A DNA stretch of 32,787 nt, filler included, from GCF_002087085.1; 15 parts of 15 records of this genome joined end to end with filler, not necessarily neighbours in it; one strand, 5' to 3'; positions 1-31,992 are shown, counted from the whole stretch's first letter. Notes: generated from the letters alone by a model not told the origin. Made by a program: numbers and translations.

Positions 1-3000
1 CCTGCAGAAAACAGTGACCCTGTACGACACAACAGATTACGCCCATCGGGGCCTGGTACTGGAACAGGAAGTACTGGACGAATCCGGCTTTGTGTACCGC
101 CGTACCGAACGCAGCTACAACTCTGTCCCGGTATACTATGCGACGAAGCATGTCGGCCGGGGAACGGTGTACGAGCAGAACCTGCAGGTCGGCTCGGTGT
201 TCCCGCAGCTGACAGAGGAACGGACGACACAATGGGAAAAGTCGAGCGGCCCCTATGAAGGCTCAACGATTACCAGGAGCTACACCTACGACGAGTACGG
301 GCTTGTCCGTACCATGCGTGAGAGTACCGAGAGCGGCAGCGATGAGGATACCCTCTGGCTCTCGATTGACTACGACAGGAGTACCGTACTGACCCAGGAT
401 CGCTACTGCGTGGGCCTTCCGACAGAGCTTGTCGTACAAAGCGGAGGAGAAAGCGGAAATACCCTGCGGCACCGGGAAGGAAGCTACGATGACACAGGAC
501 ACCTTGTAAGCCTTACGACCTGGGAAGACGAGGATACATCATCTACAACGACCCTCACCTGGACCGAGAACGGCTTGGTACAGAGTATTATCGATCCCCG
601 GGGAACCACTGTCCTCTACACCTACGACGATACCCTTGATCAGTTTGTGGAACGAATCGAAACCTCGGGAAGCGGCATAGCCGGGTATACAACGCAAATG
701 GCCTGGGATTATACTCTGGGAGTGATGACCGAACGCACCGATGCCAACGGCCTGACCGAGAGAAGCGAATACGACAGCTACGGACGGCTGACTGCCGTCT
801 ATACCCCCTACGACGAGAGCATCCCGGCAGTACACTACGACTACGAGCATGCCGGGGATGCGTACTGGCGGAGCATCACCGAGAACAAGATCAGCACGGA
901 CCCTGAAAACGAGGAGACCCTCCGGACCATTATAGCAATCGACGGCCTTGGCCGAACAATCTACAGCGCCAAGAGCGGTGTGATGACCGATGAAAACGGA
1001 AGCGGCGAAACAGGCTGGAACGTAAGCGGAGCAGTCCGCTACGACAAAAAAGGACGGAGCATCGAAGAGGGGCAGCCCGGGTTCAGTCCCGGCCCTGATG
1101 ACCCTGTCCCCGCAACCATGCGGAACGGGACGGTGACGGACTACGACATTCTGGACAGGCCCATACGGGTGGAACTGCCGGACGGCTCGGTCATGACCAC
1201 TGAGTACGGCATAGAAGAAGGCCTCCCGAGAACCATCAGCACCGACCCGGAGGGGCGGGTAACAGAAACCCTGAGCGACCAGCGGGGACGTATCGTTGAA
1301 CTGCGGAAGAAGTACCAATCCACCCTGCTCATGAAGAGCGCCTACAGCTACGACGTGCTGGGACAGCTGTGTGAAGCGGTGATACGGGATGAAAATGTAA
1401 GCGGATCACCTGAGTACAGAACGGAATACGAGTATGACCTCCGGGGCCTCCAGACCGCCGTGGAATCGGCTGACACCGGACGCACGACCTTGAGCTACGA
1501 CGCGGCAGGACGCCTTGTAAAGAAGGTGAGCGCCGTACTGCGGGAAACCGGCGGAGCGGTGAACTACGAGTACGACGGCCTGGGGCGACTGATACACATC
1601 CGCTACCCCGACCCCGGTATGGATGTGAGTTATCAGTACGGAACGGCCGCCGCGGCCATCGAGTACGGGGCAGGACGGCTGTTGAGCAGAAGCGACGAAT
1701 CAGGGAGCATCGACTACGAGTACGGAAAGATGGGTGAGGTTATTGCAGAGACCAGGACCCTGAGGCGCCTTGACCCCCTCTCGACCACCCGGGAGGCCCG
1801 CATCGAGTACCAGTCGAACTACCTGGGCCAGATGGAGAGCGTGAGGTATCCTGACGGAGAGGAGATCCGCTACGACTATGACGAAGGCGGGCAGGTAGTC
1901 CATGTTGAAGGCGTCCGGCCAAACGGAAGCACGACCGTATTCGTCGAGAGAATCGGTTACGACGAGTTCGGCCAGCGGAGCTATCTTGAATACGGCAACG
2001 GGGATGTGACCCGTTATACCTACGACCCCGAACGCCGCTGGCTCAGTACCTTGAACACAGAGAACCAGTGGGGACGGAACCTGCAGAACCTGAGCTACAG
2101 CTTTGACAATGTGGGAAACATCGAGGAGCGGAGAGACGCAAGCGGCAGGTACATGGGCACCCAGAGTTACAGCTACGACGGGCTCTATCAGCTGGTGGGA
2201 GAAGAGGGGACCTACGTGAACAAACCCGCCGGCCACACCAGCTGGACCGATCGCTACAGCCAGAGCTTCAGCTACGACGGCCTTGGGAATATCCTTACGA
2301 AGACCAGTACGGAAACCAGAGTCCCCTCGGCCTCTGTCCGGCCCCTGAATTACGAGCTGGACTATGAGTACGATGAACAACGTCCGCACCTTGCAACCAG
2401 GATAGGGGAGCTCTACTACAGCTACGATGCCAACGGAAATGTAACGAGGGAATCGACCCTGCCTGACGGCCAGTCCTCCGCCCATGAAGCCCCGAACCTG
2501 AGCACCATCGGGGATGTCCGCCGGGCCGACCAGGCCTTCGGCTTTATCAACGAAGTGGAAAGCGGAAACGAGAACGAGTACATCCGCAGCTTCAGCTGGG
2601 ACGCGGAGAACCGCTTGAAGAGCGTCCTTACCTCCAACGGAAAGAGTGTGAAGTTTCTGTACGATGCCGACGGCAAGCGTACCACCAAGTATGCAGGGGA
2701 CGGCTCCTACACCGAAGGCATAAGTGGCGAAACCCTCTACTTTAACGAATGGTGGACCGAAACCGCCGACTCCGGCAGCTTCCGCAGAGCCAAGCACATC
2801 TACGTGGGAAAGGAGCGCATCGTAACCCGCCTGAGTAACCCCTCCACGGGAGGAACTCCCTATGAAGACGTTAACACCTACTATTACCACCCCGACCACC
2901 TGGGAAGCGCCCACTGCATCACCGACCCCCAGGGAAACCCCTACGAGAGGATAGAGTATACCCCCTACGGTGAGATGTGGATCGAGATACAGGAGGATGA

Positions 3001-3835
3001 GGCTACAGCAAGTTATAACTACATACCCTTCCGCTTCACCGGCAAGGAGATGGACCGTGAGACCGGGCTGTATTATTACGGGGCGCGGTACCTTGATCCG
3101 AAGACGTCGAGGTGGATGAGCGGGGACCCTGCGGGGTACCAGCTAATGAATCCGATGGATGGAGAGGGGAAGCCGAGGCAGGGATACAGCATAGTTGAGG
3201 CGACGAACTGGTATTCGTATACAAATAATAATCCTATTATTTACGTTGATCCAAATGGAAATATATCAATCAAGTCAATATTTAATATCGGGCAATTAAT
3301 GGTTTCTAATCCACAACCATTGGGAACACCAATGGAGGCACCACGCTCTGCATATGGAAAACAGTTTACTACCATTCAAGATTCGAGAAACGCGACCGCA
3401 AAAGTATTTAATGCAATCGGTTTCTTACCATCGGGTGTGACTCAAGTCTTATCATGGTTAGCTGTTGCTGCGGGTGCGGCTGAAGGTGACGTTAATCCAA
3501 GTGTTGTTAAGTATGAAGTACGGAAAGCTTTTATTACTGGTGCAAAAGATGAAATAAAGGTAATTGATGCGATAATTAATGGAGTCGATCCCAGTATTGA
3601 CAAAGATTTTATTGATTACCTTTCTGGCCAGAAAAGCTTACTGGAAAGTGAGTTATATGCAAATCAAGAATATGATGCAGAGCAAATTGAAAAAATAAAA
3701 GACGATTTTAGGATGTACGCTGGCGAAGGAATGGGTGGCCGAGGCGGACAAATACCACAATACGAGGATAATAGACCTACATCGATACCAACTGATTCGA
3801 TTGATTATTGGAAGGAATACAATGAGGCAAGGTAA
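1..3835 (+). CDS. Rhs/YD-repeat polymorphic toxin, 5'-truncated at the contig edge; variable C-terminal domain ~3260-3835
   Basis: Many YD repeats; Rhs core end (YYYHPDHLGS...PFRFTGKEMDRETGLYYYGARYLDP...WMSGDP...YVDPNG); visible drop in GC after ~3220. Confidence 0.93.
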   Translation, partial: LQKTVTLYDTTDYAHRGLVLEQEVLDESGFVYRRTERSYNSVPVYYATKHVGRGTVYEQNLQVGSVFPQLTEERTTQWEKSSGPYEGSTITRSYTYDEYGLVRTMRESTESGSDEDTLWLSIDYDRSTVLTQDRYCVGLPTELVVQSGGESGNTLRHREGSYDDTGHLVSLTTWEDEDTSSTTTLTWTENGLVQSIIDPRGTTVLYTYDDTLDQFVERIETSGSGIAGYTTQMAWDYTLGVMTERTDANGLTERSEYDSYGRLTAVYTPYDESIPAVHYDYEHAGDAYWRSITENKISTDPENEETLRTIIAIDGLGRTIYSAKSGVMTDENGSGETGWNVSGAVRYDKKGRSIEEGQPGFSPGPDDPVPATMRNGTVTDYDILDRPIRVELPDGSVMTTEYGIEEGLPRTISTDPEGRVTETLSDQRGRIVELRKKYQSTLLMKSAYSYDVLGQLCEAVIRDENVSGSPEYRTEYEYDLRGLQTAVESADTGRTTLSYDAAGRLVKKVSAVLRETGGAVNYEYDGLGRLIHIRYPDPGMDVSYQYGTAAAAIEYGAGRLLSRSDESGSIDYEYGKMGEVIAETRTLRRLDPLSTTREARIEYQSNYLGQMESVRYPDGEEIRYDYDEGGQVVHVEGVRPNGSTTVFVERIGYDEFGQRSYLEYGNGDVTRYTYDPERRWLSTLNTENQWGRNLQNLSYSFDNVGNIEERRDASGRYMGTQSYSYDGLYQLVGEEGTYVNKPAGHTSWTDRYSQSFSYDGLGNILTKTSTETRVPSASVRPLNYELDYEYDEQRPHLATRIGELYYSYDANGNVTRESTLPDGQSSAHEAPNLSTIGDVRRADQAFGFINEVESGNENEYIRSFSWDAENRLKSVLTSNGKSVKFLYDADGKRTTKYAGDGSYTEGISGETLYFNEWWTETADSGSFRRAKHIYVGKERIVTRLSNPSTGGTPYEDVNTYYYHPDHLGSAHCITDPQGNPYERIEYTPYGEMWIEIQEDEATASYNYIPFRFTGKEMDRETGLYYYGARYLDPKTSRWMSGDPAGYQLMNPMDGEGKPRQGYSIVEATNWYSYTNNNPIIYVDPNGNISIKSIFNIGQLMVSNPQPLGTPMEAPRSAYGKQFTTIQDSRNATAKVFNAIGFLPSGVTQVLSWLAVAAGAAEGDVNPSVVKYEVRKAFITGAKDEIKVIDAIINGVDPSIDKDFIDYLSGQKSLLESELYANQEYDAEQIEKIKDDFRMYAGEGMGGRGGQIPQYEDNRPTSIPTDSIDYWKEYNEAR

Positions 3836-4427
3836 GTCACACAAGAAGCCAAGGATATTCTGGATATACTATTTCTTTATTGCTCTCCCTTTCTTTGCAT
3901 ACAGGTTTTTCATTTGGGAGCCGAGTCCGTATAGAGAAAAACTACCGGATTGGTTTAATAGCGTTGAAAAGCAAATAACCTATTTAAATAATATAAGTCA
4001 AGAACTATATAGCAGTGATTTAAAAAAGGAAGTGGGTATAGTAGAAATCAATGTAAATCAAAATAATAATGAAATCATATTAAGTCTTGCTGGGGAAGAG
4101 TATTCAGGAAATATCGGGAAAGTCGATACTCTTTCCTATACTTATGAGAGTTTTTCTGTCGATGATCAAGTGATGGAACCTATTCAGATTGATAGTATCG
4201 TTTTATGGATTAGTGTTAACCCAGATGATTCCGCAGTTCTTATTCCATTGAATCCAGAAAGAGTGATGGAAGATGAGGATAAGAGAGTATTTTTATATCA
4301 AAATATGGATGAAAACGAATTTAGGAGAATAATAAAAGAAAGGAAAAGTCCTATGGAAATTGAAAAATCTATTTACTTCAGTATTAATGAATCAATTTAC
4401 TCAGGTATTTTTATAGTTGAGCAGTGA
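3822..4427 (+). CDS. Putative Rhs immunity protein with N-terminal membrane anchor (201 aa)
   Basis: ATG at 3822 with GAAGGA upstream overlaps the toxin stop; AT-rich; basic N-terminus followed by hydrophobic IFWIYYFFIALPFFAY. Immunity role inferred from position. Confidence 0.7.
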   Translation: MRQGKSHKKPRIFWIYYFFIALPFFAYRFFIWEPSPYREKLPDWFNSVEKQITYLNNISQELYSSDLKKEVGIVEINVNQNNNEIILSLAGEEYSGNIGKVDTLSYTYESFSVDDQVMEPIQIDSIVLWISVNPDDSAVLIPLNPERVMEDEDKRVFLYQNMDENEFRRIIKERKSPMEIEKSIYFSINESIYSGIFIVEQ

Positions 4428-4478: not shown

Positions 4479-4540
4479 CCACCGAATGACCGAATTGAGC
4501 CGCGTCCCGGAAAGCTTCCGGGAGGTCTGCTCCAATTGAT
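4479..4540 (-). repeat. attC-like hairpin (ATT-core type), interrupted by an IS end
   Basis: Minus strand reads ATCAATTGGAGCAGACCTCCCGG..CCGGGACGCGGCTCAATTCGGTCATTCGGTGG, nearly identical to 5001-5072; the left outer box is replaced by the IS terminus. Confidence 0.75.
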
Positions 4541-4595
4541 GTAACCGTCAATTAAACCCCACCCCTGACAAGAAATCAGAGGGAAATATTCCAAG
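4541..4595. mobile_element. IS terminus (IS66-like terminal inverted repeat)
   Basis: GTAACCGTCAATTAAACCCCACC, the exact reverse complement of 4728-4750; GTAA start is typical of IS66 TIRs; 55-bp contig tail. Confidence 0.6.
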
Positions 4596-4695
4596 NNNNN
4601 NNNNNNNNNNNNNNNNNNNNNNNNNNNNNNNNNNNNNNNTTAATTAATTAANNNNNNNNNNNNNNNNNNNNNNNNNNNNNNNNNNNNNNNNNNNN

Positions 4696-4750
4696 AGGAT
4701 TGTAGGGTATACAGCTATCCGGTATAAGGTGGGGTTTAATTGACGGTTAC
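4696..4750. mobile_element. Opposite IS terminus (IS66-like TIR)
   Basis: Ends GGTGGGGTTTAATTGACGGTTAC; the internal sequence differs from 4564-4595, so this is the other end of the same IS type. Confidence 0.6.
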
Positions 4751-4770
4751 ATTGTTTCTATCCTTGTCCT

Positions 4771-5000
4771 CTACCCTATTCTACCCCATATTCATCAGTG
4801 CACTGCTTCTCCGTTGTACCCAATATTATCAGTGTTCATTAGGGTTTAGTTTTTCCCTTCGCAGGTTCATCGTCACGGGGGAGTGGCTCCCCTTTTTTTT
4901 TAGTCGGCTCATAAAAGATTATAAAGGACGGGTCGTTTGGCCCGTCCTCCTAAAAATTCTTCCTTCACTATTACATATCAATGAACAATTTTATTACGCT
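4771..5000 (+). repeat. Deleted copy of the GxxExxY unit (flanks kept, gene removed)
   Basis: 4771-4864 aligns to 7719-7812 and 4860-5000 aligns to 8284-8424, joined at a shared CGCAG. Confidence 0.85.
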
Positions 5001-5072
5001 CCACCGAATCGATCAATTGGAGCAGACGTCCCGGAGCTTTCCGGGACGCAGCTCAATTCGGTCATTCGGTGG
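5001..5072 (+). repeat. attC-like hairpin, ATT-core type (complete)
   Basis: CCACCGAAT-cgatca-ATTGGAGC-agACGTCCCGG-agcttt-CCGGGACGca-GCTCAAT-tcggtc-ATTCGGTGG; perfect 9-bp outer IR and the same L''/L' (extra G) as the canonical attCs. Confidence 0.8.
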
Positions 5073-5113
5073 GTGAATTAGTCTGATCAATCTAATCTCC
5101 ATACATATTACAA

Positions 5114-5743
5114 TTAATCGGAAGATGTAAACCACAAGACTTTATTATCTATTTCACTTAAGAAAACGTAACCATTCTTAGGTCCATTTAATGGAGTTGT
5201 TGCCTCATGCACCTTGGTAGCCCATTCATCAAAAAATGTATAGTCTTCATTATTCAACTGAGAAATTATTTTACTAATCTTATCGATATCTTTTTCGGGG
5301 CCAACATGCAGAGAATTATCTTTAGATATTGTATGATAGATCTTACCGTCTTTTTCATAAGTTACTGAGTAAGCTACAGCATCACTTAGAGCTCTTACTT
5401 TATACGTTTGGTCCTCCGATGATTGTAGATAATTTGGTAATATGAAAATCTCTAGTGATTGTTCAATAGCTTCTTCAATTTTCGGATAAATAAAAACACT
5501 AATATTTGAATCATTCGTTATCCGCCTGAGAACGCTATCTTCGGCTAAATTAATACTTTTAGTACTACCAACAATCATTGAAAATATAGCTTTTGATGCA
5601 TTACCGTTATTACTGAAGGCTAATTCTATCTCCTGAGGTTCACTGGTATAGCCTCGCCATATAATATTATATTCAACAGAGCACCCAATAAATATTACAC
5701 AAAATAACAAAAAACTACTAATCGCCAATAATCTTTGAAACAT
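5114..5743 (-). CDS. Putative Rhs immunity lipoprotein (209 aa)
   Basis: Overlaps the toxin 3' end; signal peptide MFQRLLAISSFLLFCVIFIG-C with lipobox-like Cys; AT-rich. Confidence 0.72.
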   Translation of the reverse strand: MFQRLLAISSFLLFCVIFIGCSVEYNIIWRGYTSEPQEIELAFSNNGNASKAIFSMIVGSTKSINLAEDSVLRRITNDSNISVFIYPKIEEAIEQSLEIFILPNYLQSSEDQTYKVRALSDAVAYSVTYEKDGKIYHTISKDNSLHVGPEKDIDKISKIISQLNNEDYTFFDEWATKVHEATTPLNGPKNGYVFLSEIDNKVLWFTSSD

Positions 5744-7538
5744 CCTGTAAAACTCCTGAGTTCTCTAAAGATTTTCGATTATCCAGTAAAAACATCATTG
5801 CATCATCCTTTGGTAGGATAAAATCTTCAACTTTATCGGTAACTGGAATCAACATTGTCATTTGTATATTCCAATCTGTAACTCTTCCATTAACTTTTTT
5901 TACGTTCATTCTAATATCGCCTGCAACGTGTCCATCCTCGCTTCTACTATTTTCCAGGATATCCCCTAGTAATCCTGCTGCATCAATTATTGTAGAAAGG
6001 TTTGTATCAACACCATCAGAATAACTATTCTCGCCTGGCATTCCCCTTGGAAGCCCAGTCCCAATAGCAACAAAAATATTTGAAGATAATATCAATGAAT
6101 TATTTTTTACTCTCCTCAAACCATTGGACTGAATTGTTAAGCCACCTTTATTACTCCCATCATTATAATGCATTCCTTGAAGCCCAAGATATAAATCAGA
6201 AAAATTAACCGGGTCTGGGGGTGGAGCAGTATCAGACTTCAACATTAATGCAAAAGCTGAAATGAGAACAAATGGGACCCAAGCGACCTCTCCCGTTGGA
6301 TCAACATACTTCACTGGATTATTACTCACATAGCTATACCAGTTCGTCGCCTCAACCATGCTGTATCCCTGCCTCGGCTTCCCTTCTCCATCCATCGGAT
6401 TCATCAGCTGGTACCCCGCCGGATCCCCACTCATCCACCTCGACGTCTTCGGATCAAGGTACCGCGCCCCGTAATAATACAGCCCGGTCTCACGGTCCAT
6501 CTCCTTGCCGGTGAAGCGGAAGGGTATGTAGTTATAACTTGCTGTAGCCTCATCCTCCTGTATCTCGATCCACATCTCACCGTAGGGGGTATACTCTATC
6601 CTCTCGTAGGGGTTGCCTTGAGGGTCTGTTATGCAGTGGGCGCTTCCCAAATGATCAGGGTGATAGTAGTAGGTGTTTACATCCTCATAGGGAGTCCCGC
6701 CCGTGGATGGGTTACTCAGGCGGGTTACAATGCGCTCCTTTCCCACGTAGATGTGCTTGGCCCGCCGGAAGCTTCCTGAGTCGGCGGTTTCGGTCCACCA
6801 TTCGTTAAAGTAGAGGGTCTCGCCGCTTAGGCCTTCGGTGTAGGAGCCGTCCCCTGCGTACTTGGTGGTACGTTTGCCGTCGGCGTCGTAGAGGTACTTC
6901 ACGCTCTTCCCGTTGGAGCTAAGGACGCTCTTCAAACGGTTCTCCGCATCCCAGCTGAAGCTGCGGATGTACTCGTTCCCGCATCCGCTTTCCACTTCGT
7001 TGATAAAGCCGAAGGCCTGGTCGGCCCGGCGGACATCCCCGATGCTACTCAGGTTCGGGGCTTCATGGGCCGAGGACTGGCCTTCAGGCAGGGTCGATTC
7101 CCTCGTTACGTTCCCGTTGGCGTCGTAGCTGTAGTAGAGCTCCCCGATCTTCGTTGCAAGGTGCGGCCGTTGTTCATCATATTCATAGTCCAGCTCGTAA
7201 TTCAGGGGCCGGACAGAGGCCGAGGGTACTCTCGTTTCGCTGCTGGTCTTCTTCAAGATATTCCCCAAGCCGTCGTAGGTAAAGCTCTGGCTGTAGCGAT
7301 CGGTCCAGCTGGTGTAGCCGGAGGGTTTGTTCACGTAGGTCCCCTCTGCTCCCACAAGCTGCTACAGCCCGTCGTAGCTGTAGCTCTGGGTGCCCAGGTA
7401 CCTGCCGCTTGCGTCTCTCCGCTCTTCGATGTTTCCCACATCGTCAAAGCTGTAGCTCAGGTTCTGCAGGTTCCGTCCCCACTGGTTCTCCGTGTTCAAG
7501 GTACTAAGCCAGCGGCGTTCGGGGTCATGGCGTGCCAT
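5718..7538 (-). pseudogene. Orphan Rhs module (3' core fragment plus distinct C-terminal toxin 5718-6290) with in-frame TAG at 7362-7364
   Basis: Near-identical to ~2020-3250 of the first Rhs gene; homology stops abruptly at ~7527; Tyr codon (TAT in copy 1) is TAG here; ends YVDPTG plus 190 aa of unique sequence. Confidence 0.88.
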
Positions 7539-7929
7539 ATTTTTTCTGCCACGGATTAGAGAAGTTATTGAACCACTGATCGATATGGGGCCAGGCTGGG
7601 GGGCCCCGCTGATAGTGCATGTATGCGCAAGGGGGTGGTTCGCTGATTTTTGTCGCGAATGTGCTGGAACCGGACTTTTTATCATGATGAGATTATAGCA
7701 GATTCCTTTTTCTCATCGCTACCCTGTTTCGCCCTGTTTTATCAGTACACCGCTTCACTGTTGCGCCCAATATTATCAGTGTTCATCAGTGGTTTAATTT
7801 TTCTCTTCGCAGCCTCCTGTCTTCTTCATTATACCTCCCGCTCCTCGCCGTCAAGGGACGCTGTCGCTCTTCGCCCTGTGACTGCTCCTCGCTTGGACGG
7901 TGTTTGTTAAGAAAAACAGGAGGTGCAGT

Positions 7930-8310
7930 ATGGCACACATAGCTTTCAAGGAATTGTCTCATCAGGTGCTGGGAGCAGTCTTTTCGGTTCATAACATTTG
8001 TGGTCCCGGGCTCCTGGAATCCGCCTATCATGGGGCCCTGGTCATCGAACTTAAAAAGAGAGGTATTCCCTTCTGTACGGAAAAAATCTATCCCCTCTAC
8101 TATAAAGGCGAACTGGCAGGTGCCTACATCGCTGATCTTGTTGTTGCAAACAGCATCATCTTGGAACTCAAGTCAGTACGGCAGCTCACATCCGCCATGG
8201 AGGCGCAGCTTATAAATTACCTGCGGCTGTCCAAGGTTCCTGTCGGCTATCTTATCAATTTTCGCAATAGCAAGGTCCAGTGGCGCAGGTTCATTGTCAC
8301 GGGGGAGTAG
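7930..8310 (+). CDS. GxxExxY protein (PD-(D/E)XK nuclease-like family)
   Basis: GPGLLESAY motif, ADLVVANSIILELK, AQLINYL, GYLINF; AGGAGG RBS before ATG 7930. Confidence 0.92.
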   Translation: MAHIAFKELSHQVLGAVFSVHNICGPGLLESAYHGALVIELKKRGIPFCTEKIYPLYYKGELAGAYIADLVVANSIILELKSVRQLTSAMEAQLINYLRLSKVPVGYLINFRNSKVQWRRFIVTGE

Positions 8311-8348
8311 CGCCCCCCATTTTTAGTCGGCTGTATAAAATATTATGA

Positions 8349-8372
8349 AGGACGGGCCGTTTGGCCCGTCCT
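8349..8372. terminator. GC-rich hairpin downstream of GxxExxY (second copy at ~4925-4948)
   Basis: AGGACGGGCC-gttt-GGCCCGTCCT, perfect 10-bp stem; no clean U-tract, so the terminator role is uncertain. Confidence 0.45.
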
Positions 8373-8424
8373 CCTGAAAATTCTTCCTTCTCTATTACGT
8401 ATCAATGAACAATTTTATTGCGTT

Positions 8425-8496
8425 CCACAGAATATCTTAATTGGAGCAGACGTCCCGGAGCTTTCCAGGACGCAGCTCAATTCGGTCATTCGGTGA
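8425..8496 (+). repeat. attC-like hairpin, ATT-core type
   Basis: CCACAGAAT-atctta-ATTGGAGCAGACGTCCCGG..CCAGGACGCAGCTCAAT-tcggtc-ATTCGGTG; near-identical to 5001-5072. Confidence 0.8.
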
Positions 8497-29175: not shown

Positions 29176-30495
29176 CAGGGCGAACGCACATAGATATGCA
29201 TGAACAGGCGGCGGTCGATAGGCTTTTCTGTATTAATATACAACAGAAGTGAATTCTTATACTACTAGACTTTTTCAACTCCTTATTTGATAATGGATTA
29301 GAGTATAAGGAGTGCATATGAAGAAGCCGACAGCATCCATCGTTGATCATTTTGAGGAATTAGCAGATCCCAGAATCGAACGAAACAAGAAGCACGCCCT
29401 GATAGACATCATCGTTCTGACGATTTGTGCTGTTATCACGGGGAGTGAAACCTGGGAGGAGATTGAAGATTATGGTCACTACAAAGAAGAGTGGCTCAAA
29501 TCGTTTCTCCCCTTGCAAAATGGCATTCCTTCACATGATACCATCCGCCGGCTTTTCATCCGACTCAATCCTGACGAGCTTCAGCGGTGCTTCATGAGCT
29601 GGATAGAAGCCGTACGAGATGTTATAGCCGGTGATGTCATCGCAGTAGATGGGAAAACACTCAGACGAAGCGGAGACCAGGTGAGCGGGAAATTGCCTAT
29701 CCATATGGTCAGTGCCTGGGCCGCAGGGAGTGGGGTACTCCTGGGACAGAAGAAGACTGCAGAGAAATCAAACGAGATAACCGCCATTCCTGCCCTACTG
29801 GAATTGCTCAAGATTAAGGGGTGTATTGTTACGATCGATGCCATTGGCTGTCAGAGTGAGATTGCAGCAACTATTCAGAACAAGAAAGCTGACTATGTCC
29901 TTGCGCTGAAAGGAAATCAGAAGAATCTCCATGAGGACGTGAAATACTTCTATCATGAGCTGGAAGAGAAGGACTTAGCAGAAGAGTGGCTCGATAGTCA
30001 TACAACAGTCGATAAAGACCATGGACGCATTGAGATCCGTGAATACTATCAGAGCGATGAGATCGCTTGGCTCCCGGAACTAAAGAACTTTGTCGGGGCA
30101 AAGACCATCGGAATGGTAAAGGCAACCCGGATTATTGGCAAAAAGCAATCGACCGAATGTCGATACTATATCTCAAGCTTGCCGATAGATGCACAGCGCT
30201 TTGCCCATGCGGTACGCTCGCATTGGAGTGTGGAGAACACCCTTCATTGGACATTGGATATGACGTTCAGGGAAGATGATTCCCGGATGCGCGAAGGTTA
30301 TTCGGCAGAGAACTTTGCCATGATGCGACGGTTAGCGTTGAGTTTGATGAAACGAGATAAGTACTCGAAGAAATCATTGAAACGTCGCAGAAGGATTGCT
30401 CATCTCGATAACTCATACTTAACCCAAATGCTGTTTAGTTCTGACGAGGCTATCGACCGCCGCCTGCCTGGATGAGTTTATGTGCGTTCGCCCTG
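29176..30495 (+). mobile_element. Second ISAs1-family element
   Basis: Perfect 17-bp TIR CAGGGCGAACGCACATA. Confidence 0.93.
29318..30475 (+). CDS. ISAs1-family transposase
   Basis: Same motif set (GIPSHDT, AVDGKT, KSNEITAIP, HWSVENTLHW); AAGGAG RBS. Confidence 0.95.
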   Translation: MKKPTASIVDHFEELADPRIERNKKHALIDIIVLTICAVITGSETWEEIEDYGHYKEEWLKSFLPLQNGIPSHDTIRRLFIRLNPDELQRCFMSWIEAVRDVIAGDVIAVDGKTLRRSGDQVSGKLPIHMVSAWAAGSGVLLGQKKTAEKSNEITAIPALLELLKIKGCIVTIDAIGCQSEIAATIQNKKADYVLALKGNQKNLHEDVKYFYHELEEKDLAEEWLDSHTTVDKDHGRIEIREYYQSDEIAWLPELKNFVGAKTIGMVKATRIIGKKQSTECRYYISSLPIDAQRFAHAVRSHWSVENTLHWTLDMTFREDDSRMREGYSAENFAMMRRLALSLMKRDKYSKKSLKRRRRIAHLDNSYLTQMLFSSDEAIDRRLPG

Positions 30496-31679: not shown

Positions 31680-31812
31680 NNNNNNNNNNNNNNNNNNNNN
31701 NNNNNNNNNNNNNNNNNNNNNNNTTAATTAATTAANNNNNNNNNNNNNNNNNNNNNNNNNNNNNNNNNNNNNNNNNNNNCAATATATACCGCGTTTAGCT
31801 TTTTTTCAATAT

Positions 31813-31986
31813 ATATAACATCCAATTGAGCTGCGTGGCGTTAAGTTGGCATGCGTTTGTGCTGCTACCGAACCAACAGTATATCATCAGTTTCGCTCGC
31901 ATCACCTTCGTTATATCTACTCTATTATTGGAACCAGTAGCACAAACCATGACAATAGCCACGTCTGCTCCAATTGCAGGTTATAC
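31813..31986 (-). repeat. Integron attC site (174 bp)
   Basis: Minus strand GTATAAC-ctgca-ATTGGAGCAGACGTGGC...GCCACGCAGCTCAAT-tggat-GTTATAT. Confidence 0.92.
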
Positions 31987-31992
31987 CGTAAA

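Follow-up and report, generated by a model that had tools for sequence, protein, structure and literature searches.

Hairpins homologous to attC sites behind the candidate toxin/immunity segments of an Rhs orphan array

The Rhs modules and their hairpins

The stretch of DNA analysed here (the window) comprises 32,787 bases of the genome GCF_002087085.1, made up of 15 short contigs (1.0-4.6 kb) with N spacers between them. Its main subject is an array of Rhs genes on contigs 1, 2 and 6, in which each variable segment, encoding a candidate toxin and a candidate immunity protein, is followed by an imperfect hairpin of 62-74 nt (h1-h4) related to the attC sites of integron cassettes. Such cassettes lie on contigs 3, 4 and 15, and several contigs carry a transposase. 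Coordinates are collected in Table 1.

The three Rhs genes are 92% identical up to the YVDPxG motif at which the core ends, after which each continues into an unrelated region of about 190 amino acids (aa) with a small open reading frame (ORF) behind it. One is the 3' part of a full-length gene and the others are 5'-truncated copies, so that the locus combines the features of an Rhs orphan array: a core running to a DPxG-type motif, an unrelated C-terminal domain, a small downstream ORF and truncated orphans. Neither the C-terminal regions nor the small ORFs matched a Pfam family, and the labels "toxin" and "immunity" therefore rest on Rhs architecture and position. The orphan on contig 2 has its own ATG (7683-7685), about 50 non-Rhs codons ahead of the core homology and a frame break near 7358 (7355-7365); orphans may thus be built as self-starting units.

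On the Rhs strand, each of the four hairpins is found at a gene's 3' end. An earlier note on this DNA, made from the sequence by a model, had described the same hairpin 40-50 bp past the immunity stop codon in three modules. Its positions were correct, and the gaps measure 51 nt for h1, 41 nt for h2 and 48 nt for h4. The copies are not all the same, since h1 lacks an outer arm and h4 is a diverged variant. The fourth copy, h3, had been said to overlap the stop of a gene in the same orientation, and indeed the hairpin arm contains the stop codon (8488-8486) of a minus-strand frame whose other end is left open by the contig end.

Table 1. Features of the window by position (R1 is the covariance model built from the canonical attC sites; fold z-scores are relative to shuffled sequence)
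Feature	Position	Strand	Remarks
Full-length Rhs gene, 3' part	2-3835	+	RHS_repeat E 1.3e-37; core-end motif YVDPNGN at 3242-3262, then 191-aa variable C-terminal toxin region
Candidate immunity gene 1	3822-4427	+	201 aa; overlaps Rhs stop codon; named immunity by position only
Hairpin h1	4479-4540	-	Distal outer arm lost; abuts 25-nt box; R1 match 4479-4551
25-nt box, contig 1	4539-4563	-	Directly after h1; exact match to the contig 2 copy
25-nt box, contig 2	4728-4752	+	About 250 nt beyond h2
213-bp direct repeat, contig 2	4860-5071 and 8284-8495		About 91% identical
Terminators	4877-4893, 8301-8317	+	Intrinsic-terminator scan
Terminators	4950-4923, 8374-8347	-	Intrinsic-terminator scan
Hairpin h2	5001-5072	+	Best-preserved copy
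Candidate immunity gene 2	5114-5743	-	209 aa; sole member of its 90% cluster
Orphan Rhs unit, contig 2	5718-7685	-	Core-end motif at 6308-6288, then 190-aa C-terminal toxin region
GxxExxY-type PD-(D/E)XK gene	7900-8310	+	PDDEXK_3 E 1.1e-37; convergent with the Rhs module, co-oriented with h3
Hairpin h3	8425-8496	+	Three pair-breaking changes relative to h2, uncompensated
Hairpin h4	17197-17270	+	Diverged; outer helix and L-box helix retained, as are the two unpaired bases and an inner stem with compensated pairs
Third module	17319-19055	-	Candidate immunity gene 17543-17319 (74 aa, hydrophobic); orphan Rhs from 18822 (or contig end) to 17536, core-end motif at 18135-18115, C-terminal toxin region of 193 aa
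92% Rhs core repeat	2024-3259 (contig 1), 6291-7526 (contig 2), 18125-19055 (third module)
Canonical attC, about 168 nt	13303-13470	+	Fold -29.8 kcal/mol, z -5.08
Further full attC	10083-10250	+
Further full attC	14690-14857	+
Further full attC	within 31810-31989	-
Cut attC copies at contig ends	8687-8741, 12530-12549, 32732-32786
3'-truncated attC	11035-11160		R1 12.6 bits; 3' half lost; followed by HXXEE-family membrane protein gene 11170-11703
VapBC cassette pairs	10366-11038, 12616-13245		Antitoxin and PIN genes

Anatomy of the hairpins

Read on the strand similar to the top strand of attC, the outer helix of h2 is 9 bp long, CCACCGAAT pairing with ATTCGGTGG. Inward of it come spacers of 5 nt, one per side, an L helix in which a G and, five positions later, an A stay unpaired, and finally a central GC stem of 8-9 pairs closed by a 4-nt loop. 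Folded as single-stranded DNA and compared with 200 shuffles per copy, h2 reaches -26.8 kcal/mol (z -6.85) and h4 -19.4 kcal/mol (z -4.05), values that none of the shuffles equalled. The corresponding figures are -13.4 kcal/mol for h3 (z -2.57, 5 of 200 shuffles as good) and -13.3 kcal/mol for h1 (z -2.37, 3 of 200). When the four copies are aligned, 90.9% of the cells pair, against 36-45% when the partner is slid by one column, and four pairs have changed on both sides (shuffle mean 1.0; four such changes were reached by 0 of 500 shuffles). All four of these compensated pairs stem from h4, and they therefore represent one diverged lineage and not four independent tests. A model of the hairpin (R2) matches only h1-h4 in the window.

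By eye, no terminal duplication or further inverted repeat surrounds the hairpin, which was accordingly rejected as a miniature inverted-repeat transposable element. The idea that it is a terminator, named in advance as a finding that would count against a recombination site, was not borne out: the hairpins are not among the 11 terminator-like sites called in the scan, which places separate terminators for each strand 50-75 nt past the hairpin.

Homology to the canonical attC sites

The sites of about 168 nt in the cassette contigs are, by structure, ordinary chromosomal-integron attC sites. Each has a TATAAC/GTTATA outer helix (the copy at 13303-13470 folds with an R helix of 7 bp), an unpaired spacer of 3 nt, an L helix with bulges and a long imperfect central stem, and each full copy stands behind a co-oriented cassette ORF, for example a VapBC pair. 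This agrees with the attC layout as set out in PMC5027507, in which an R box, an unpaired central spacer and an L box with extrahelical bases lead to a variable terminal structure.

The hairpins present the same order of elements: the outer helix is followed by a short spacer, this by an L helix in which a single arm carries both unpaired bases, and this by the stem-loop. The R''/R' and L''/L' boxes are paired, although h1 is without one outer arm, and the two same-arm unpaired bases are found in all four hairpins and all four canonical sites. On the putative bottom strand the proximal unpaired base is a C and not the usual G, in hairpins and canonical sites alike. The likeness extends to the letters. 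An exact 16-mer (5014-5029 in h2, 14698-14713 in a canonical site) and an exact 13-mer (5046-5058 and 14836-14848) make up the two L arms in the same arrangement, both unpaired bases included, which upholds the earlier claim that the arms, with their unpaired G, match those of canonical attC sites and lies far beyond chance. An 11-mer is common to h4 and an attC variant (10230-10240) that has the same compensated change in its L helix.

A covariance model (R1) was built from the four canonical attC sites alone and run unfiltered on the window. The four hairpins are its best matches apart from the canonical sites themselves, which score 166-192 bits: h2 reaches 36.2 bits (E 2.9e-9, plus strand), h3 28.4 bits (E 6.1e-7), h1 16.2 bits (E 0.0025) and h4 11.1 bits (E 0.084), and the best unrelated sequence 8.8 bits (E 0.39). 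The match is specific to one strand, as h2 yields a non-significant 6.6 bits on the other. R1 aligns both helices of the hairpins. In the reverse direction, a search with R2 at E up to 1 does not recover the canonical sites. In both sequence and structure the hairpins are thus homologues of the attC sites found locally, and the z-scores together with the exact shared arms rule out a chance palindrome.

The array unit

In gene orientation, the array unit is an orphan Rhs core, a C-terminal toxin, an immunity gene, a hairpin, terminators and a GxxExxY gene or its remnant (GxxExxY being the NCBI family name for this PDDEXK_3 gene). Such units are about 3 kb long and stand in a tandem array of orphans. 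On contig 2 (4696-8586), two direct hairpin copies do bracket a 3.4-kb unit, as had been proposed, but the repeat is not the hairpin alone. It measures 213 bp and takes in the last GxxExxY codons, a plus-strand terminator, a minus-strand terminator and, as its last 72 nt, the hairpin, at whose right edge the identity stops. The near-complementary ends of the unit, which the earlier note had read as the sign of an excisable cassette, are nothing more than the outer stem of the hairpin, split into its two halves. In the left copy of the repeat the GxxExxY gene has been deleted, because 4791-4854 matches 7738-7801 (80%), and contig 6 enters this same spacer at its left end. The sequences flanking the 25-nt box differ between contigs 1 and 2, and this box may mark an array end or a deletion junction.

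Metagenome contigs give a wider view of the array. Among the 20 runs listed, four marine metagenomes from one study (X1-X4) hold a third to a half of the words sampled from contig 2, and their Logan contigs were aligned to it; wastewater and sediment runs hold small shares. Summed contig depth does not equal copy number. In X2 it amounts to 1306.6 at position 5034, compared with 135.5 for the flanks, and in X1, X3 and X4 the hairpin lies at about 2-5 times its flanks, giving a range of about 2-10 times over the four runs. The Rhs core shows a similar excess in X2 (bins of 755-1085, peak 1756). This argues for a hairpin multiplicity of roughly ten copies, like that of the Rhs core, and not of hundreds.

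The toxin/immunity segment 5086-6255 is covered nearly without differences. Loose ends at 4995 and 5004 before the hairpin, and at 5056 and 5071 behind it, represent copies whose flanks differ from just outside or just inside the outer helix, and one such copy combines h2-like inner arms with an h4-like spacer. Additional units in which 5072-6291 has been replaced would fit two further observations, namely loose ends at 6291-6298 and joints that lead from 5056 or 5070 into the core. A joint recurring in three of the four runs links 7686, one base before the ATG of the contig 2 orphan, to 4751 with 12 extra letters, leading from the start-codon region of the orphan to the spacer that lacks GxxExxY. 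It looks like the place where tandem units meet, and not like a circle closed at a hairpin. Bins 7946-8335 are uncovered in X1 and X4, which was not taken as meaningful.

Searches in other collections

Relatives of the hairpin were sought in further collections. The two-arm pattern occurred at three loci in genome contigs (Pelosinus, Nocardia and Metabacillus) and at nine loci in viral contigs, at none of which a stem lies between the arms; the former were put down to chance. The 21-nt right arm had no match in metagenome contigs, the end of the canonical attC had none in viral contigs, and blastn with either the hairpin or the canonical attC gave no match in the plasmid collection. Relatives of the Rhs core were found at four loci in metagenome contigs, at only 40-43% identity, on which the attC model reached at best 9.4 bits (E 0.18).

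What the hairpins may do

We put at roughly 40% the probability that a short subfamily of the organism's own attC sites, altered in the R box, marks the boundaries of the Rhs modules and that the hairpins are, or recently were, integrase substrates. This reading suggests that an integron-type enzyme helps to shuffle the toxin modules. The variable attC centre would have shrunk to a 9-bp GC stem, and the R-box helix would have given way to a 9-bp helix reading AAT/ATT. Folded as single strands, the hairpins would be, or recently have been, substrates of an integron integrase or a close relative, and the same protein plausibly binds both hairpins and canonical attC sites, because the L arms and unpaired bases that they share are the parts that the integrase reads structurally. 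In attC sites the extrahelical bases lie in the arm that faces the 5'-AAC of the bottom strand (as described in PMC5027507), and by that geometry the recombined strand of the hairpin would be the coding strand of the toxin gene. This would allow whole units lying between two hairpins to be cut out, put in another order or taken up; removal of the one from h2 to h3, for instance, would free a circle of 3,424 bp with an immunity gene, an orphan toxin and a GxxExxY gene. Homologous recombination through the 92% Rhs core would fuse the toxin to the full-length gene, and would also do most of the unit duplication. Any recombination at the hairpins is, at this stage, something that we infer.

R1 lays the outer helix of h2 and h4 on the R boxes, with AAT/ATT in place of AAC/GTT. 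According to the IntI1 experiments reported in PMC2811028, a substitution at the first GTT base reduces recombination by a factor of 1e3-1e4 when only one partner carries it, recombination recovers when both partners carry it, and cleavage of G-to-A substrates still takes place. By this comparison the altered triplet appears compatible with integrase chemistry. Provided that AAT/ATT is the true register, the first base of the crossover triplet sets the hairpins apart from canonical sites, and they would therefore recombine among themselves and not with ordinary cassettes. It is a rather unlikely extension of this idea that one integrase serves two insulated classes of site, long attC sites with GTT for cassettes and a short ATT class for the Rhs toxin/immunity units.

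A number of observations weigh against a role for integrase. The AAC/GTT triplet (consensus RYYYAAC / GTTRRRY) is not found in the outer helix of the hairpins, and the R-box register is itself uncertain, because R1 aligns h3 and h1 differently from h2 and h4: under the GTT of the model, h3 has GTC (GAC/GTC) and h1 has CAT. A change matching the GTC register was not cleaved by IntI1 in the assays of PMC2811028. The four hairpins all point the opposite way from the Rhs and immunity genes, while canonical attC sites stand behind ORFs of their own orientation, and the only gene co-oriented with a hairpin is that for GxxExxY, with h3. Because triplet and orientation differ in this way, the hairpins were not filed as canonical attC sites. 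No tyrosine recombinase family was detected among the 56 ORFs scanned in the window, in agreement with the earlier remark that it holds no integrase. One outer arm is absent from h1 and h3 carries three uncompensated defects, so that half of the copies look decayed, and the evidence on the hairpins comes from four copies in one fragmentary assembly. The Rhs contigs are separate from the cassette contigs, their common origin being deduced solely from the shared arms, and the runs X1-X4 are not independent because they may include the source sample. Hairpin-to-hairpin joints number none among the 14 joints listed from the contigs of these runs, although contigs drop rare forms and would not exclude rare circles, and the recurrent joint lies about 250 nt from the nearest hairpin. 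Finally, homologous recombination alone could build and shuffle the array, because it can use both the 213-bp repeat and the 1.2-kb Rhs core at 92% identity. The integron-style cassette array proposed in the earlier note is therefore only partly sustained: the attC homology and the place of the site at the 3' edge of the module stand, but the missing triplet, the inverted orientation, the decayed copies and a repeat of a size suited to homologous recombination do not fit it. The idea that the true R boxes are RYYYAAC-like and GTA-type motifs lying immediately beyond the outer helix was considered and discarded, since these motifs occur in only some copies and are poorly complementary.

The strongest rival, possible though on balance doubtful, treats the hairpin as a relic. 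An attC site, perhaps that of a GxxExxY cassette, would have come to lie beside an Rhs module and would then have been copied within a unit of about 3 kb that was duplicated by unequal crossing-over. The hairpin would now be just part of a conserved 3' flank which, together with the Rhs core, allows RecA-type double crossovers to exchange the toxin/immunity segment, with no site-specific recombinase at work. The two long repeats suit this well, as the shorter one includes a gene tail and terminators, and so do the contig 6 end that enters the same spacer, the damage to h1 and h3, and a tandem-unit joint away from any hairpin. Displacement of C-terminal regions by homologous or illegitimate recombination is, moreover, the accepted model for Rhs and type VI secretion system (T6SS) arrays as presented in PMC5361080. 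Three features are harder to reconcile with a passive flank. The flank of h4 has diverged with indels, yet its hairpin keeps both helices, the unpaired bases and four compensated stem pairs; in copies whose flanks are unrelated, the loose ends place the break at the edges of the hairpin; and the L arms are still letter-identical to those of active-looking attC sites.

It is improbable that the hairpin acts at the RNA level or as an element like the repetitive extragenic palindromic (REP) sequences, lying in the immunity gene's 3' untranslated region and there guarding the transcript against 3' exonucleases or binding a protein, with its attC likeness owed to common descent only. The hairpin does lie always close behind a stop codon, between that of the immunity gene and the minus-strand terminator, and would therefore be transcribed, and its two strands fold alike (-26.8 and -26.6 kcal/mol). 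However, a stabiliser needs neither two unpaired bases nor L arms identical to those of attC, and no Rfam family matches the hairpin at the gathering score. Its abundance also appears low for a REP-type sequence: the four copies in the window are all beside Rhs modules, and the metagenome depth of 2-10 times the flanks, which is not a copy number, suggests fewer than hundreds.

Least probable of the rivals is that the hairpin is the site of another enzyme, namely a Xer-like recombinase, an attC-targeting transposase of the IS110/IS1111 type or the neighbouring GxxExxY nuclease. Some members of the IS110 family target attC sites, and a transposase of this family is encoded on contig 10 (24862-25977, minus strand), at whose ends R1 found nothing attC-like at E below 0.1. 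A GxxExxY gene or remnant precedes h2, h3 and probably h4, the R-box analogue departs from the integron consensus, and the rAID-1 arrays described in 10.1101/471110 pair a XerD-family recombinase with integron-like intergenic repeats. Against this, L arms and bulges identical to those of the attC sites nearby suggest that one and the same protein binds both, and no such enzyme is linked to a hairpin on any contig.

Relation to known systems

The hairpins share with integron attC sites, including those in clusters of attC sites lacking integrases (CALIN), the imperfect palindrome of 68-74 nt with its outer helix, unpaired spacer, L helix with two extrahelical bases and variable stem-loop. They likewise bracket gene units as direct repeats in the same orientation, and their arms are letter-identical to those of the attC sites in the assembly. 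They differ in having no AAC/GTT in the outer helix and in being antisense to the toxin and immunity genes; the units are of 3.4 kb with convergent genes, each with terminators of its own, damage affects half of the copies and the window contains no integrase. As for Rhs orphan arrays, the full-length gene with its 5'-truncated orphans, the 92% core up to DPxG, the unrelated ends of about 190 aa and the small ORF are all as expected, but a structured DNA site behind each immunity gene is absent from the model of homologous and illegitimate recombination as described in PMC5361080. That paper, on Vibrio T6SS arrays, considers an integron-like process and reports that no evidence of an integrase was found.

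The nearest conceptual precedent is provided by the rAID-1 clusters of Bacteroidales, which are also arrays of interbacterial-conflict genes with repetitive, integron-like intergenic sequences (10.1101/471110). In the account given there, rAID clusters consist of co-oriented orphan immunity genes of low GC behind a 5' XerD-family recombinase, whereas in the present array toxin domains are fused to fragments of the Rhs core, the sites match the attC sites of the host, and the taxon hints are to Spirochaetota. The attC and attI sites engineered in the first base of GTT (Frumerie et al. 2010, PMC2811028) would have a natural G-to-A parallel in the hairpins if the AAT/ATT register is right, although those are laboratory mutants of class 1 sites and the register of the hairpins is uncertain.

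The shuffling of orphan Rhs, CdiA and T6SS modules is usually credited to homologous or illegitimate recombination, as in PMC5361080. A structured site related to attC in each module makes a role of integrase directly testable, and a search of full-text literature, supplements excluded, found no publication that joins attC with Rhs or polymorphic toxin modules. Should the two classes of site be insulated, an arsenal of weapons would be shuffled apart from the general cassette pool; this would be a natural counterpart of engineered integron target specificity and the first site-specific route for Rhs orphan modules. An altered crossover base that insulates the classes would further mean that natural integrons are able to maintain cassette pools side by side without mixing them. 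Were the sites instead inert, they would be attC relics carried as passengers of a duplicating toxin array, which calls for caution in attC-based cassette calling.

Other features of the window

The contigs look like the repeat-rich remainder of a draft assembly, with a complete 16S rRNA as the only Rfam match at the gathering score. Contig 11 is almost certainly yeast contamination of the assembly: its 458-aa EF-1alpha (26226-27602) falls in a 90% cluster of Saccharomyces proteins, and the exact sequence occurs on 580 contigs. As this contig is foreign, the contigs of the window need not share one organism. The VapB cassette protein of contig 4 has letter-for-letter copies on nine contigs, a VapC is at least 90% identical to one of Marispirochaeta aestuarii, and an IS1380 transposase is at least 90% identical to one in a metagenome-assembled genome of Spirochaetota. 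These matches serve as hints of taxon only, because cassettes and insertion sequences move between hosts. According to a 2013 paper, Treponema was then the sole spirochaete clade known to have integrons (PMC3607928). The VapBC cassettes hint at chromosomal integrons in spirochaetes outside Treponema, and the canonical attC array would be of minor note in itself if the assembly is Marispirochaeta.

Two transposases combine DDE_Tnp_1_assoc with DDE_Tnp_1 (27774-28961, minus strand; 29312-30475, plus strand), the architecture of ISAs1 / H-repeat elements, which are classical residents of Rhs loci. Both lie on contigs separate from the Rhs genes, and linkage to these was not seen. An IS30-family transposase (HTH_38 and rve; 9134-9982, minus strand) lies in a cassette contig, on the strand opposite to that of the cassettes, a short way upstream of the attC site at 10083-10250.

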